Source: Lachnospiraceae bacterium | GTDB taxonomy: Bacteria; Bacillota; Clostridia; Lachnospirales; Lachnospiraceae | Reading direction: 5' to 3' | Assembly: GCA_022794255.1 (NCBI GenBank) | Contig: JAAWEL010000027.1 | Location: forward strand, 1,676-65,675 | Length of the DNA stretch: 64,000 nucleotides | In this document: one piece after another, positions 22,984-28,566 of the stretch | How the letters are laid out: each line of letters starts with the position of its first letter | How positions within the stretch are numbered: position 1 is the stretch's first letter | Translations under genes and position numbers: made by a program | The notes under the pieces: generated by a model | What the model saw: only the letters and a program-made list of their open reading frames with translations | The model's database searches: none | What the model was told of the DNA's origin: nothing

Positions 22984-23581
22984 TTAATCCAGCTTGCGGA
23001 CGGTTATGGATGTGTTGTCTGCCCTACTGACAGTCGCCAAGGAAGTTGTTCGAGGAATTACAGCATTATTAGCGGTAAGATGCACACCAACCAGAACCGG
23101 CGAATTAACAGAGGCCGAATTAGTGCCAACCGTATGATACGAAATCTCATAAGTTCCGTTTGCCACCAGGGAAAACCTACCAGTATTCACAGGATGTACA
23201 ATATCCGTGCCCTTGATAAACAAAGAATCTGTAAAGTAAATGAGCCCATTCCTTCCCGGAGCCTGCGCTACATCACTAACTGACATCAACGCATGCAGCA
23301 CAGGAGCTGGACCTGCAGCTCCCGGAATCCCCTGGGGGCCCTGGGCTCCGGTAGGACCAGTTGGTCCGGTAGACCCTACCGCGTTCACCAGATCAAAGTC
23401 CGGGGACGTTCCCAGCACTCTTACCGGGGAATTTTTGTTTGCACGGTACAAGGTGCCATTCCAGTAAACCAGATCCCCCTGCAGCATCCTCTATTACCAC
23501 AGTTCTGGTTAGTTGTGCAGTTCTAATTACTTCCACAGTTTATATTTCCCCACACCCGGAAGCCATTGGATCATAATACAT
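22984..23581 (-). pseudogene. collagen-like (BclA-type) spore surface protein, disrupted
   Basis: RBS AAGGAG plus MYYDPMASGCG start at 23581, Cys-rich frameshifted segment with stops, then an ORF with GPT/GPQ triplets and a BclA-C-like tail ending SITVRKLD. Confidence 0.65.
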
Positions 23582-23679
23582 ATCATCACTCCTTCTATTT
23601 GTTTCCAGCTGGCTTACTATATGATATGTCCTCAGGTGATTTTGGTTCGTCCCAACGCGGCGGTTTTGTAACCTCTACA

Positions 23680-23935
23680 GAACATAAGGTGAAAAAACCT
23701 GTCCCTCTGGATGAAATCGCCGCTGCTTTGGATGTGATTGACCGCAACACCGCTACGGGTAAGCGTGACTATGCAATGATTATGACAGAGCCTGTCACCG
23801 GGATAAGGTCTGTTGATATCATAAACCTGACTTTTGACGCGATTGACTGGATTAACGGGGAAAACGCTTGCACTTCCTTTAACGACAGACGTTGGAGAAG
23901 CCATTCAGGACTATATATTGAAAGGAACACCTTAA
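23680..23935 (+). pseudogene. tyrosine recombinase/integrase fragment
   Basis: IDRNTATGKRDYAMI...TGIRSVDIINLTFDAIDW (box I Arg), then in another frame LALPLTTDVGEAIQDYILKG; no C-terminal H-x-x-R or Tyr. Confidence 0.8.
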
Positions 23936-24151
23936 TGCTACACGTTATAAAGTCAGCGATGAAGAACTATTAAAAAGGCTTAGCGGCCTAAAATTTATCA
24001 GAAATTTTTATAGTGCTGTTTTCTTGAAACAATGGCCTCACTCATTGTTTTTCTGATAACTCTTTTTTTCTGATAAGGGAGCTTTTTTAACTGGCAATTC
24101 AGGTGTATAAGATGTATAAACGCAAATGCTCTTGTTCATTAAGGGAGTATT

Positions 24152-24330
24152 TGGCAAAATAAAAAATCCCAAAAAGTGTAGTTTTTGGGAATATTCTACT
24201 TATAAAATTTTATAGGCAAATATCCATAGAAAAAAGATTAAGTTTATTGATATTTTGACGATATTATGATAAAGTATAGCTGATTTGTGGCAAAATAAAA
24301 AATCCCAAAAACTACACTTTTTGGGAATAT
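24152..24330. repeat. two 43-bp direct repeats (24152-24194, 24288-24330) whose 24-bp cores (24167-24190, 24303-24326) are perfect inverted repeats
   Basis: TGGCAAAATAAAAAATCCCAAAAA-[GTGTAG or CTACAC]-TTTTTGGGAATAT; only the central hexamer differs, and the two hexamers are reverse complements. Confidence 0.95.
24238..24275 (+). promoter_or_regulatory. sigma28 (FliA/SigD)-like promoter with an overlapping sigmaA-like promoter
   Basis: TTAAGTTT-N11-GACGATAT (24238-24264) vs consensus TAAAGTTT-N11-GCCGATAW; also TTGATA-N17-TAAAGT with TG (24247-24275). Confidence 0.6.
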
Positions 24331-24397
24331 AATGAGAGAACTTGGAAATGCGTTGCAATTTATATTTATAAGCTTCAGAGGCAAAAAGAGAGGAAGA

Positions 24398-25777
24398 ATG
24401 TCATCAGATAAGATATGTAAAACGGTTCGTCAATATAATAAAGTTCCAATTTCTAAAGAAGATATGGGAAAGCTGCAGGATATAGCGATTGACTACAGCA
24501 AAGTAAAAAATTATGTCTATGACCGTTTTGGCGGAATTGGAAGTCTTTCAAAGCTGTACCCGGGATATACGATACAAAATGAGATGACTGCCACAGATCT
24601 GAGAAAAATATTGGGATTGCCAAGTGTTTATTTTTATCTTGCAATTTTTGAGGCGCTGGCTGATATCAAAGGGCAATGGAACCGGACTAAATCCAAGTTA
24701 TTGCTGCTCATAGGAACCAATGATAATTTCACATCAGAGGAAAAGCATTATCTTCGGTTTGTTTTGAAGGTTAATAATGCTTTTTCGGCAATACTTAATC
24801 AGAAGCCTATGGAACTTTCTCAGGAGATACAGAAAAAATATGAGGAGGTAGCCATTGGCATTAATAAGGAAAGGCTTCATCGCTATCTGTGCAGGCAGGT
24901 AAGAAAATATCATGTTAAACAGCATACGGACGGAGCAAAGGGATTCGCTATTACAGAACGGGCTTACCGGTATGGAAATCATGGAATCTATCTGTCCACG
25001 AAACAAAACCGAAAACGGATTTTTGTGCCATTGACAGACAACAACCAGTATAAGAGCCAGCTGTACATAAAGCTTTATCCGGACAGGGAAAGCATTGAGA
25101 TTATGGTGCCCGTTTATATGGAGCCCCGCTCCTTTGAAGAATATACCAATCAAATAGGTATTTCTATTGGCATGTTTACTATGTTGACTACCAACGATGG
25201 TCATTGCTATGGAAAAGAATTTGGAAAATATCAGACCTATTACTCAGAGTGGATTCGGAATCAGACTATAAGCTACAGCTGCAACCGGGGAGATAATCCG
25301 GGAAGAAGAAAATATTATGCAAAAAAGAAAAAACTTGAAGAACAGCTCCATGCCTATATTAATCAGGAGCTTAATCTCTTTTTTAGACAGGAGAAGCCGC
25401 AGACTATTTATATGGCTAAGCTCCCCGAGCCCCAAAAAAGTGGGGCGGTTCCCAAGATCAATAATCAGGTGACTATGTGGCAGAGAGGGTATATCCGCAG
25501 CCGTCTGATACAAAAATCCAGAGAAAAATCTGTGGAGGTTGTGGAGGTGTTGGGAAAAGACATTAGCAGAGAGTGCAGCCAATGCAGGGAGATGGGGAGT
25601 CAAAAAGACGGAATCTTTATCTGCGAACGATGTGGGTATTCAGCGGATAAAAAGCTAAATACTGCTCAAAACGTATGGAAGCGTGGAGTGGAAGGAAGGA
25701 TCATAAGAACAACAGTTTGGATGAATGCTGGTTCCAAACCAGGATTTTACCGCAAGGACCAGACAGAAGGTTCATGA
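24398..25777 (+). CDS. TnpB/Cas12f-like protein with inactivated RuvC (TldR-like), 459 aa
   Basis: RuvC-I IGISIG (D replaced by S256), RuvC-II IYMAKL (E replaced by A340), intact Zn finger CSQC...CERC, RuvC-III DKKLNTAQNV (D replaced by K419); no tnpA nearby. Confidence 0.82.
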   Translation: MSSDKICKTVRQYNKVPISKEDMGKLQDIAIDYSKVKNYVYDRFGGIGSLSKLYPGYTIQNEMTATDLRKILGLPSVYFYLAIFEALADIKGQWNRTKSKLLLLIGTNDNFTSEEKHYLRFVLKVNNAFSAILNQKPMELSQEIQKKYEEVAIGINKERLHRYLCRQVRKYHVKQHTDGAKGFAITERAYRYGNHGIYLSTKQNRKRIFVPLTDNNQYKSQLYIKLYPDRESIEIMVPVYMEPRSFEEYTNQIGISIGMFTMLTTNDGHCYGKEFGKYQTYYSEWIRNQTISYSCNRGDNPGRRKYYAKKKKLEEQLHAYINQELNLFFRQEKPQTIYMAKLPEPQKSGAVPKINNQVTMWQRGYIRSRLIQKSREKSVEVVEVLGKDISRECSQCREMGSQKDGIFICERCGYSADKKLNTAQNVWKRGVEGRIIRTTVWMNAGSKPGFYRKDQTEGS

Positions 25778-26000
25778 TATAAAAAACAAACGGCATTAGA
25801 AGGCAGGAAAAGCCTGCGCATTGGGTATGCCAAGACCTTGGGAACATCGATTCTTTTTCAAGGAGAGATGACGTAGCAGGGAGCGAAGTGAAGCTGTCCG
25901 AGCGGCTCCTTCACATCACACAAAAAGTGACCAATATGCCTTATTTTAAAAGCTATGCACAAGACAGACCAAAATTGCGGGTATAACAAAAAGAATGGAA
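25727..26000 (+). ncRNA. candidate omega/guide RNA of the TnpB-like gene
   Basis: Series of hairpins directly downstream of and overlapping the gene end, where TnpB omegaRNAs lie; boundaries uncertain. Confidence 0.4.
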
Positions 26001-26007
26001 GATAACA

Positions 26008-28566
26008 ATGAGAAGGACATACAAAAAGCAGGCAGAAGATTTTATCAAGCTGTTAGAACAGGTGCATACAGAGATAAAAAAGTCTATAGAAGCAAAAAAG
26101 TATAATACAGCCATGGAGCTTTTAGGTCAATGCCAGGAAGGCGCCATTGGGCTGGGTAATCTGATAGAGAAAGAGGAGGGAGAAGATTTTGTCACGATTC
26201 CTCTTTTACAGTCTTACTGTGAAGTTACCTATCAATTGTACAAAGGCCTGTACCAAAAGGAAGATTTGCCTGGAAACAGGGCATACAAAAATCTCAAAAA
26301 GGCTTTGATCCAGATAGAAAACAGTGTAAGAAATGATATCAAAGGACGGCTGGAAATCGTGTTTCTTCCTTATAAGGCATCCATGTGGGACAGCATGGAA
26401 AGTGTCTGGCAGGCAGCAGCAGCGGATCCGGACTGCAGCACCTATGTTGTGCCGATTCCATACTATGAGAGAAACGAAGAGGGTGTGCTGAACAAATACT
26501 GCTATGAGGGAGATCAAATGCCGGATTATGTGCCAGTGACCTCCTATAATGCCTACAATTTCAAAGATCAAATGCCAGATGTGATCTATATTCACAATCC
26601 ATACGACCAGGGGAATTATGTGACCAGTATTGACCCCAGATTTTATTCTGGTGAATTAAAAAAATGCACTTCATGTCTTGTATATATTCCCTATTATAGT
26701 ACTGCGGGTGGAATGGGCGAGGGACAAAGCCTTTGTCAGGCGTATTTTAATGTGGACCATATTGTCGTCCAGTCAAAGAAATTCATCAAATTCTTTGACC
26801 CGGTTATTCCGGAAGAAAAGTTTTTGCCCTTGGGTTCTCCCAAATTTGACCGGGTGATTCAAATGTGCAGCAATCCGCCGAAAGCGCCAGAAAGCTGGAA
26901 GAAAAAAATGGAAGGCCGGAAGGTTTATTTTTATAACACAAGCATTAACGGAATGTTGGCAGATACAAAGACCTTTCTGAAAAAAATGGAATATGTGTTC
27001 CAATGTTTTGAGAACCGGCCGGATTCCTGTCTGTTGTGGCGTCCTCATCCTCTGCTGGAATCCACCTTTGCGTCTATGAGGAAAGAGTATAAGCCCTGGT
27101 ATGACCGGCTGAAAAAGCAATTTGCAGATGCAAATCTGGGAATATACGATGACACTTCAGATATCACCAGCACAATTGCCCTGTCAGATGCTTATATCGG
27201 GGACGCAGGAACAAGTGTCACCTCTCTTTTTGGCATTGTGGGAAAACCCCTGTTTATATTCAATAACCAGATTAACACTCTTCCCCAGTCCGATGACTGG
27301 AGGGGCGAAAAGATTAATCTGGCGTTGGACGTTTGGGAAAATGACCGATACCAGATTACCCAAAATAACCAGCTGTGGTTTTCTGAAAAAAATGATTACC
27401 ACTATAAATTTTATATGGATCTGGGAACCGGATATTCGGGAGGCAGCTATTACATAAGAGCCCTGGAAATCAAAGATAAGATATATGTCCTTCCGGGAAA
27501 CGCTCAGAATCTGCTGATTATTGAAAACAAAAAAATAAGAAGGATTGATTTTAAGACAAAAATCCCACAGCCGGGAGCTTTTTACAGTTACTGGTACAAT
27601 GAAAAATATATTTTCCTGATTCCCTTTCAGTATCCGCTGCTTCTCCGGTTCAATATAGAAACAGAAGAATTGCAGGGGATAGAGGGCATCCGGCCGTTCA
27701 ATGTGCGAAATATAAATGGAGAATGGCGGGCCGGAGGTGTGGGTATATACGGCAATGAACTGGTTTTTGCCTCCCCAAAGGACAATGAATTTATCTTCAT
27801 AGATATAAATACATTGCGGGCCAGAGGGTTGTGCAGCCATTCCCATTGTAATCTTGGAACCCAGGGAATCATAAATGAAGGGGATGAGTTGTGGCTGATG
27901 CCCATGAACGGCATGACTATTACCTGTTGGAATCCAAAGACAGGACAGGTGAGAGAATATGATGATCTGCCCGGTGATTTTAAGTCTGTTCGGTGGCCAC
28001 AGGAGCAGGAATGTAGGGAACGGCCCTTTTTGAATCTGGTATTTTGGAGAGTGAGCGGGAAAGAAAATATTGTCATAGCTCCATGTTGGGGGAATATGTA
28101 TCTGACTCTGGACCGGGAGACTGGAAAAATGGAGAAATGGGAGCCGCCGGTTCCTTTTGTTAATCGTGGAAAAAACGGCTATTTTGCTGCCTCAGGTATG
28201 GGGAGTTTCTGTGTCACCTACCCACGGATGGGAAAGGCTGACTGCCGGATCTGGTATGCGCCAGAGAGAAAGCTCTATGATATCAACATTGACACAAAGG
28301 AATATAAAGAGATCGAAATCAATTTTGATTACCAGGATCTTCGGGAGCATGAGTGCGGATTTATGGAGGAATCGGAGTGGATGCAGTATTGTCTCAATGA
28401 AAGTGCATTTAACTCTCTGAAAGATTTTCTGGATGGAAGGATAACCGGCAATCCCTTTGACAGAGAAAGGCAGATCCGGGCGTTTTCAAAAATAAACGCA
28501 TCAACAGACGGGGCCTGCGGGAAGCGGATTCACCGTTTTGTAAAGGGAAGGCTGGGGGATTGCTGA
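26008..28566 (+). CDS. CDP-glycerol glycerophosphotransferase-like protein with N-terminal helical bundle and C-terminal beta-rich domain
   Basis: FLPYKASMWDS, YIHNPYD, LGSPKFD, LWRPHPL and SDAYIGD motifs. Confidence 0.75.
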   Translation: MRRTYKKQAEDFIKLLEQVHTEIKKSIEAKKYNTAMELLGQCQEGAIGLGNLIEKEEGEDFVTIPLLQSYCEVTYQLYKGLYQKEDLPGNRAYKNLKKALIQIENSVRNDIKGRLEIVFLPYKASMWDSMESVWQAAAADPDCSTYVVPIPYYERNEEGVLNKYCYEGDQMPDYVPVTSYNAYNFKDQMPDVIYIHNPYDQGNYVTSIDPRFYSGELKKCTSCLVYIPYYSTAGGMGEGQSLCQAYFNVDHIVVQSKKFIKFFDPVIPEEKFLPLGSPKFDRVIQMCSNPPKAPESWKKKMEGRKVYFYNTSINGMLADTKTFLKKMEYVFQCFENRPDSCLLWRPHPLLESTFASMRKEYKPWYDRLKKQFADANLGIYDDTSDITSTIALSDAYIGDAGTSVTSLFGIVGKPLFIFNNQINTLPQSDDWRGEKINLALDVWENDRYQITQNNQLWFSEKNDYHYKFYMDLGTGYSGGSYYIRALEIKDKIYVLPGNAQNLLIIENKKIRRIDFKTKIPQPGAFYSYWYNEKYIFLIPFQYPLLLRFNIETEELQGIEGIRPFNVRNINGEWRAGGVGIYGNELVFASPKDNEFIFIDINTLRARGLCSHSHCNLGTQGIINEGDELWLMPMNGMTITCWNPKTGQVREYDDLPGDFKSVRWPQEQECRERPFLNLVFWRVSGKENIVIAPCWGNMYLTLDRETGKMEKWEPPVPFVNRGKNGYFAASGMGSFCVTYPRMGKADCRIWYAPERKLYDINIDTKEYKEIEINFDYQDLREHECGFMEESEWMQYCLNESAFNSLKDFLDGRITGNPFDRERQIRAFSKINASTDGACGKRIHRFVKGRLGDC

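Follow-up and report, generated by a model that had tools for sequence, protein, structure and literature searches.

What is the role of the non-coding DNA that lies between a nuclease-dead relative of TnpB and the first gene of a surface-glycan operon in a mouse-gut bacterium of the family Lachnospiraceae? The question arises from a 64,000-nucleotide (nt) stretch of a genome of this family (contig JAAWEL010000027.1 of assembly GCA_022794255.1), referred to here as the window, whose numbering is used throughout. On its + strand, a gene at 24399-25777 encodes a 459-amino acid homologue of TnpB that resembles the TldR proteins, a recently described kind of regulator. A first-pass annotation had proposed that the region following this gene is structured and could hold the scaffold of a guide RNA. 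The observations set out below, comprising conservation, covariation, co-occurrence with the protein, and a pseudoknot followed by a short tail, support that proposal, and nucleotides 25698-25951 (+ strand) are very probably the guide RNA of the adjacent protein, in a partnership of the TldR type. No paper on this RNA or locus was found in a literature search.

Architecture of the RNA

As a single sequence, the region folds in an unremarkable way: the structure of 25727-26007 has z = -1.33, with 23 of 200 shuffles folding equally well, so that the structural evidence is comparative. Downstream DNA of tldR homologues was aligned, at first for 28 loci and later for more than 40. A non-coding block spanning approximately 25698-25935, together with a tail, is kept behind homologues whose proteins are 40-86% identical to that of the window. 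This block is a scaffold of about 238 nt, composed of a four-helix 5′ domain, an A-rich linker and a six-helix 3′ domain, with a pseudoknot. The alignment of orthologous downstream regions and the covariance modelling that had been recommended at the outset were carried out, and they yielded both conservation and covariation. Searching 23500-26500 against Rfam with cmscan returned chance-level matches only (E > 3).

The 5′ domain (25698-25778, + strand) was delineated with RNAalifold on 26 sequences and with a covariation script applied to an alignment, A1. Its outer helix, H1, joins 25700-04 and 25707-10 to 25770-78, and within it are H2 (25717-20/25759-62), H3 (CTGGT at 25728-32 with ACCAG at 25738-42) and H4 (25750-51/25756-57). 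The domain also carries an invariant single-stranded segment, ATTTTACC. The first-pass annotation, which had the structured region start at 25727, thus recognized structure where structure exists but placed its beginning too far downstream; the element starts at about 25698, which adds H1 and H2. Given that the tldR open reading frame (ORF) ends at 25777, the end of the gene and the beginning of the RNA share sequence, and RNAs encoded likewise, at or across the 3′ end of tldR, recur in at least 40 related loci.

Beyond the A-rich linker (25779-25790, + strand, from alignment A1), the 3′ domain (25791-25935, + strand) is captured by a covariance model, R1. It contains H5 (GGCAT/ATGCC, 25792-96/25827-31) and H6 (GCAGG/CCTGC, 25803-07/25813-17), followed by H7 (CCTTG/CAGGG, 25836-40/25877-81), inside which sits H8, a variable CATC/GATG hairpin (25845-48/25867-70). 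An invariant motif, GGGAGCGAAG, which includes GGAGC, belongs to the same domain, as do H9 (GTGAAG/CTTCAC, 25888-93/25909-14) and H10 (TCAC/GTGA, 25916-19/25927-30). The pseudoknot is formed by ATTGG at 25820-25824 and CCAAT at 25931-25935, the latter being the final scaffold element ahead of the guide (all on the + strand).

Much of this pairing had been anticipated from the letters of the window, and covariation confirms the CTGGT/ACCAG, GCAGG/CCTGC, GTGAAG/CTTCAC and TCAC/GTGA stems as well as the long-range ATTGG/CCAAT pairing. Other proposed partners had to be exchanged. CCTTG had been paired with CAAGG (25859-63), whereas compensatory changes assign it to CAGGG at 25877-81; GGAGC, offered as one side of an alternative stem with GCTCC, sits in the invariant single-stranded motif. 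Similarly, GGCAT had been thought to close the structure over a long range with ATGCC at 25936-40, but its partner is the local ATGCC at 25827-31, and the distant one shows uncompensated variation in at least seven lineages.

Applied to 26 full-length copies, RNAalifold yields the ten helices, with compensatory double changes in 35 of 49 pairs. Model R1, whose 135 positions cover 25791-25937, matches 44 copies in the related loci examined. In its alignment (42 distinct sequences), 95.1% of the cells in the 3′ domain are paired, compared with 83.9% in shuffles, and changes have occurred on both sides in 26 of 35 pairs; none of 500 shuffles reaches any of these measures, and sliding the partners by one to three columns lowers pairing to 33-48%. 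A model of the 5′ domain, R2, caught only H3, and RNAalifold lost H1 and H2 on the R2 alignment. Helices H1-H4 were therefore tested with our own script on alignment A1, which gave 94.3% pairing, double changes in 15 of 20 pairs, no equal among 500 shuffles and a drop to 21-44% in slid controls.

Individual helices illustrate the same trend. H7 appears in relatives as CCCTG/CAGGG, CCCCG/CGGGG or ATCCCG/CGGGAT, and H5 has changed from GGCAT/ATGCC to GGCGT/ACGCC in four lineages. The pseudoknot is paired in 97% of cells and is invariant in most copies, with compensatory variants (TTAG/CTAA, AATAG/CTATT and ACAG/CTGT) in the three most divergent lineages; a small local helix, UAG/UUG, is also offered by RNAalifold in competition with it and displays almost no covariation. 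Pairs of G and U are frequent (for example, UG 24 and CG 16 in H7), which fits an RNA read from the + strand.

The dead TnpB homologue and its tie to the RNA

The assignment of the tldR product draws on Pfam, Foldseek and its RuvC motifs. Its sole Pfam match is Cas12f1-like_TNB, a zinc-ribbon domain, and the match to the NCBIfam model guided_TnpB falls below the family cut-off. A structure model built from 26 homologues (mean predicted local distance difference test score, pLDDT, of 73) resembles Cas12f/TnpB ternary-complex structures over its full length (Foldseek E ~1e-11, template modelling score 0.5-0.63). At the positions of the acidic RuvC residues D/E/D, the protein has S in RuvC-I (IGISIG), A in RuvC-II (TIYMAKL) and K in RuvC-III. 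In the alignment the K takes the position of Cas12f's catalytic D, and it does not vary across the protein family, while the S and A were assigned from motif position and partial alignment (RuvC-I from motif position only). Judged from the model and these motifs, then, all three acidic residues are replaced within a Cas12f/TnpB fold, the combination that also marks TldR proteins, and loss of the triad predicts a complex able to bind DNA but not to cut it.

The conserved part of the protein stops near 25700, and the final ~25 codons enter the RNA gene. Residues 437-459, the final 23, have a pLDDT below 30 in the model. Relatives carry earlier stop codons that remove this C-terminal extension, which argues that the tail of the ORF is read-through into the RNA gene. 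The ORF of the window is ~25 codons longer than those of its relatives, running through the first RNA helices to a TGA at 25775-77 in the 3′ strand of H1.

The window's genome (87% complete) contains one copy of tldR and no canonical TnpB; no gene for TnpA lies near tldR, and transposon ends are not identifiable. The lack of TnpA and of ends, the single copy and the dead nuclease are what might be seen if an old IS200/IS605-type insertion had decayed and the RNA were the non-functional remains of its omegaRNA or of its transposon right end. A relic would not retain its structure at 40% protein identity, however, and here the helices are maintained by compensatory changes across genera; the protein frame is likewise intact, and many residues are invariant over the 1555 homologues of the family. 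It is thus extremely improbable that the element is such a remnant.

As a probable guide RNA, it can be compared with the omegaRNA (or reRNA) of TnpB in IS200/IS605 elements such as ISDra2 (PDB 8H1J, 8EXA). In both, a tnpB-family gene and the RNA are encoded by one strand and overlap at the 3′ end of the gene, a multi-helix scaffold has a pseudoknot beside the guide, and the guide forms the 3′ end; the protein fold also matches. The RNA of the window differs in having no transposon context, a single copy, a dead nuclease as its partner and no match in Rfam, and its guide is conserved between genera rather than being set by each insertion site. The marks of an IS200/IS605 or IS607 right end (TnpA, left and right ends, multiple copies and a flank-derived guide) are accordingly not found, since the element is single-copy, no TnpA-like gene is nearby and the tail is conserved between genera.

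The distribution of the RNA follows that of the protein. Across a sample of 150 genomes of the family, R1 matches exactly the five that were found to carry the protein, always just 3′ of its gene, and none of the 145 others; the window's genome has one RNA copy. This bears on the alternative that the RNA is a cis-regulatory leader of the glycan operon, riboswitch-like or acting by antitermination, with no dependence on the TnpB-like protein. Its position as part of a long operon's 5′ leader, its high degree of structure and the absence of a match to any known RNA family would all suit such a leader. Yet the RNA occurs only in protein-carrying genomes (5/5 versus 0/145), even though paralogues of the TagF-like gene that heads the operon are common without it, and a different gene follows the RNA at three loci (L003, L013 and L006). 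A protein-independent leader is, on this distribution, very unlikely.

In the genome designated G168, the two components of the proposed guide-RNA system are encoded apart, at the loci L094 (G168:C4:4000-10000) and L095 (G168:C2:17000-23000). Its tldR gene lies behind a perfect sigma-D promoter (TAAA-N16-GCCGATAT) and is followed directly by a glycan gene, with no RNA between them. A different contig carries an orphan, full-length RNA copy, which is immediately preceded by a gene for a serine recombinase and a pair of hairpin repeats of the type found at 24152-24330 in the window, and is followed by a paralogous glycan gene. This separation of RNA from tldR speaks for an RNA that acts in trans.

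Sequencing libraries provide a further observation. Mouse-gut data (four public runs from two studies, one run being only guessed to be RNA) contain contigs with 100% identity to the window that span 25712-25930, 25727-25881, 25715-25867 and 25740-25883, and the same runs contain contigs of related scaffolds from other organisms. The coding DNA on either side is covered by none of the contigs in these runs, which is not taken as evidence, given that contigs do not demonstrate absence. The scaffold is present in RNA libraries, and presence is all that these contigs convey; they do not reveal the termini of the RNA, its strand or its abundance, and DNA may have been carried over, which counts against the guide-RNA interpretation.

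The guide and its candidate targets

The candidate guide, ATGCCTTATTTTAAAA, occupies 25936-25951 (+ strand) in the alignments, where it follows the pseudoknot strand CCAAT, and appears to start at about 25936. Of the two starts suggested in the first-pass annotation, that at 25915-21 cannot hold, because H10 and the pseudoknot strand, which belong to the scaffold, still lie downstream. A start after about 25940 was close, although the reason given for it, closure by GGCAT/ATGCC, was wrong; it is the end of the pseudoknot at 25935 that sets the boundary.

Conservation of the tail extends over 12-16 nt after 25936, and its first ~12 nt (ATGCCTTATTTT) are conserved between genera, with variation across the family at positions 1, 3, 4, 6 and from 11 onward. 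Two near-identical loci in the genome G081 (L003, 2807-3150, and L013) differ in a variable hairpin and in a loop, with compensatory changes, and also in bases three and four downstream of CCAAT. In one copy the scaffold is followed immediately by a 59-nt insertion, which supplies a new tail and a terminator-like hairpin and leaves the old tail intact 45 nt downstream; the guide of the other copy matches this old tail with one mismatch. Two other readings of the tail were rejected: pairing of its CTTAT with ATAAG at 25703-07, since the ATAAG bases take part in the covarying H1, and a small ORF from 25936 (MPYF...), since its length is not conserved and several relatives have ATA or ATT in place of its start codon.

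In the window, the first glycan gene lies 57 nt downstream of the guide DNA. The + strand of 25650-26007 contains nothing that resembles a promoter or an intrinsic terminator, in agreement with the earlier remark that a U-tract terminator is lacking, and the interval would form part of one transcript. This arrangement invites the possibility that the same guide RNA acts in cis, binding its own DNA at 25936-51 and either throttling read-through into the operon or regulating itself. A perfect guide match is by nature always present at the RNA's own locus, and the 5′ flank of this self site (CCAAT) ends in AT, as does that of the candidate targets described below (GTATAT). Canonical TnpB systems, in contrast, spare their own locus, which lacks the target-adjacent motif (TAM). 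Nor does feedback in cis require the split between RNA and tldR seen in G168, and it leaves unexplained both the conservation of the guide and its likeness to a coding motif in paralogues; it is accordingly an improbable account.

That likeness is the starting point for considering targets in trans. The guide core, CCTTATTTT, resembles the coding DNA of an IPYF motif in paralogous glycan-locus genes, the motif of the TagF-like family being K/C-L-V-Y-I/V-P-Y-F/Y. In the window's genome (G000), both IPYF motifs of a second TagF-like paralogue, on contig C7 (L100), read CCTTATTTT. The candidate site there (G000:C7:44551) is GTATAT ATACCTTATTTTATAT, which matches the guide at 13 of 16 positions, or 14 of 15 when the preceding ATAT is counted. 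In the window's own first glycan gene (26008-28566), the corresponding sequences are ATTCCCTATTAT and ATTCCATACTAT (8-9/12), so that its IPYY-motif codons mismatch the guide. Five non-self sites in the genome match the guide at 12 or more of 13 positions, one of them being the C7 site; the estimated chance of a hit falling within the 1.2-kb C7 gene is ~0.002, or ~0.03 when other interesting places are allowed for.

Comparable matches are found in other genomes. The orphan guide of G168, ATACCATATTTT, matches at 12 of 12 positions, including a rare CCA codon, and its site is motif-2 of the gene behind tldR. Guides in G313 (14/16, or 15/17 over 17 nt, with CCA), G306 (Lachnospiraceae bacterium M18-1; 14/16) and G081 (14/16) each match a paralogue in their own genome. 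Those of G000 and G248 reach 13/16, and in G248 the GTA extension is shared as well. The guide of G234 reaches 11/16, with G at position 1 and TTATTA in common with its site; at 13 nt, the other genomes all scored lower. Unusual variants of the guide are, in this way, echoed in a paralogue of the same genome. All good motif-2 sites have GTATAT as their 5′ flank, lie sense to the gene and have their TAM-proximal end toward the promoter, the orientation that repressed or blocked elongation best for TldRs (Wiegand et al., bioRxiv 10.1101/2023.11.30.569447). When genomes were permuted, nine guides had an in-genome match of at least 13/16 against 4.2 expected (P = 0.007, at a threshold chosen post hoc).

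Several results weigh against this view of the guide. No perfect match to its 16 nt exists elsewhere in the 87%-complete genome of the window, and four other genomic sites match it as well as the paralogue site does. Permutation of summed scores gave P = 0.6. Position 3 of the guide is mismatched in nearly all candidate targets, and for some guides the gene directly downstream is no poorer a match than other genes are. CCTTATT is not significantly rarer in tldR-headed genes (10/46) than in others (14/38), and IPYF would read as the core ~13% of the time from local codon usage alone. In addition, the candidate sites lie in coding regions, whereas known TldR targets are promoters. A rank test was also null (mean fraction 0.47), guide matches in cis, in trans and between genomes differed only marginally, and 12-16-mers drawn from 25921-25976 gave chance-level matches only in the window's genome. 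No promoter target of the guide was found, and the flagellin loci, which had been singled out in the first-pass annotation as places to search, reach 10/12 at best.

Taking both sets of observations together, the guide core may pair with the template strand of motif-2 codons in the gene that opens other glycan loci, a proposal with a substantial but somewhat less than even chance of being correct. The likeness of the core to these codons hints at repression of rival loci, although the statistics are mixed. Among individual sites, a 17-nt gapped match inside a recG-like gene of the window's genome was taken as chance. A 15/16 match to the scaffold end plus guide (AATATTCCTTATTTTC) occurs at G000:C80:112378 (L096:1079). 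This site is in a different glycan cluster, at about codon 36 of a gene with weak similarity to GT1 that comes after one for a polysaccharide flippase; IPYF is encoded here too, and the 5′ flank is not GTATAT. In M18-1, the best matches of each guide include motif-2 sites of the other loci (13-14/16), with one guide also scoring 13 on its own gene, which hints at a hierarchy among loci.

A probably switchable glycan operon and a possible mechanism

Upstream of tldR is a segment (24152-24330, + strand) in which a sigma-D-like promoter (TAAG-N14-GACGATAT) facing the gene is bounded on each side by a hairpin repeat. The repeats are 42 nt each, with a cccaaaaa-loop-tttttggg hairpin whose 6-nt loop is flipped between the two, and they enclose ~110 bp. 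Homologous loci have an invertase-like tyrosine or serine recombinase upstream, and related metagenome contigs often stop 60-180 nt upstream of tldR, as is expected where an assembly meets a flipping segment. On these features, 24152-24330 looks like an invertible promoter.

Downstream of the RNA, the first glycan gene (26008-28566, + strand) encodes an 852-amino acid protein that has no Pfam match and whose nearest named protein clusters are TagF-like. In 18 of 28 loci, the gene next after tldR and the RNA encodes a homologue of this ~850-amino acid protein, with CDP-polyol and glycosyltransferase genes farther downstream, and additional tldR-RNA loci head other polysaccharide clusters. A stable link to genes unrelated to transposition, as seen in TldR systems, is therefore present here in the form of the TagF-like and glycan genes.

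From this setting, a mechanism can be envisaged in which the RNA would be transcribed together with tldR from the invertible sigma-D-like promoter, lacking a promoter or terminator of its own, and would probably be trimmed to a stable, protein-bound species. The complex would bind guide-matching DNA without cutting it and act as a transcriptional roadblock or repressor. Its guide core would pair with the template strand of the Y-I/V-P-Y-F/Y codons, typically ATA CCT TAT TTT behind GTATAT, such that switching the locus ON would silence a rival locus (in the window's genome, at G000:C7:44551) while its own gene would escape through synonymous codon differences. TnpB elements take their guide from the DNA that flanks them, and the guide could accordingly have originated from an ancestral insertion beside this motif in a paralogue.

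Extended to the whole set of loci, the scheme would amount to a system in which the phase-variable glycan loci of the flagellar regulon exclude one another by means of guide RNAs. A dead TnpB would stand at the head of each switchable locus, or a guide RNA or both, the two being separable, and the ON state of one locus would arm a repressor against the first gene of its rivals. This broader scheme, which is drawn from sequence comparison, is tentative and rather doubtful.

Similar arrangements can be sought among characterized systems, which include TldR-guide RNA pairs associated with fliC_P in Enterobacteriaceae and with oppF in Enterococcus (Wiegand, bioRxiv 10.1101/2023.11.30.569447; Xiao, 10.64898/2026.09.22.753285). 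Shared features are a ruined RuvC triad, the absence of TnpA and transposon ends, a stable tie to non-transposon genes, and a guide RNA just downstream in which both scaffold and guide are conserved, as are the guides of the fliC_P-associated TldRs. A connection to the flagellar regulon is present here through the sigma-D-like promoter, and the logic would be the same, namely to bring one's own version and silence the resident one. The differences are also considerable. The host is a member of the Lachnospiraceae, the partner is a TagF-like glycan operon behind an invertible promoter, some genomes have two to four loci, and the RNA is in places encoded without tldR. The scaffold, at ~238 nt and with two domains, contrasts with mature TldR scaffolds of ~97-100 nt, and characterized TldR guides are 16 nt or 9-11 nt. 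The candidate targets lie in paralogue coding regions rather than in promoters, and the candidate TAM is GTATAT/TATAT as opposed to GTTAT and TTTAA. A third, csrA/flagellin-associated group of Clostridial TldRs (Wiegand) may be related; csrA and flagellin genes are not near this locus and reside on other contigs of the window's genome.

These comparisons, all made at the level of sequence, indicate that the system is probably a new clade of TldR-type RNA-guided regulator in mouse-gut Lachnospiraceae. The clade comprises more than 1500 proteins from gut Lachnospiraceae, for which there is now a structure model of the guide RNA and a genomic setting, namely that of the first cargo behind an invertible promoter, with the surface-glycan operon following. 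If the proposed mechanism is correct, this would be the first case in nature of an RNA-guided roadblock that acts within genes serving antigenic or glycan switching. The clade would then also be a new source of programmable repressors that are compact and whose two-domain scaffold differs from those characterized.

The capsular-polysaccharide loci of Bacteroides combine invertible promoters with UpxZ proteins, which act as trans-locus inhibitors. By analogy, several phase-variable glycan loci would have first genes that silence the others, such that one glycan is made at a time. The likeness is one of logic only, given that inhibition here would come from a DNA-binding protein directed by a guide RNA rather than from a protein antagonist of an antiterminator.

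Genomes vary in their complement of such loci. Several (G301-G313, loci L062-L091), for example M18-1, contain two to four tldR-RNA-TagF-like loci as well as paralogues that lack tldR and the RNA. Cultured bacteria with homologous loci include M18-1, Sporofaciens musculi WCA-9-b2 and Dorea sp. 5-2. In the window's genome, the second TagF-like paralogue (L100, G000:C7:43690-45113) has neither tldR nor the RNA and is truncated by the end of its contig. It shares the promoter core of the window, has no left repeat and retains a degenerate right repeat; conceivably, L100 may be a "default" locus that is fixed in the ON state.

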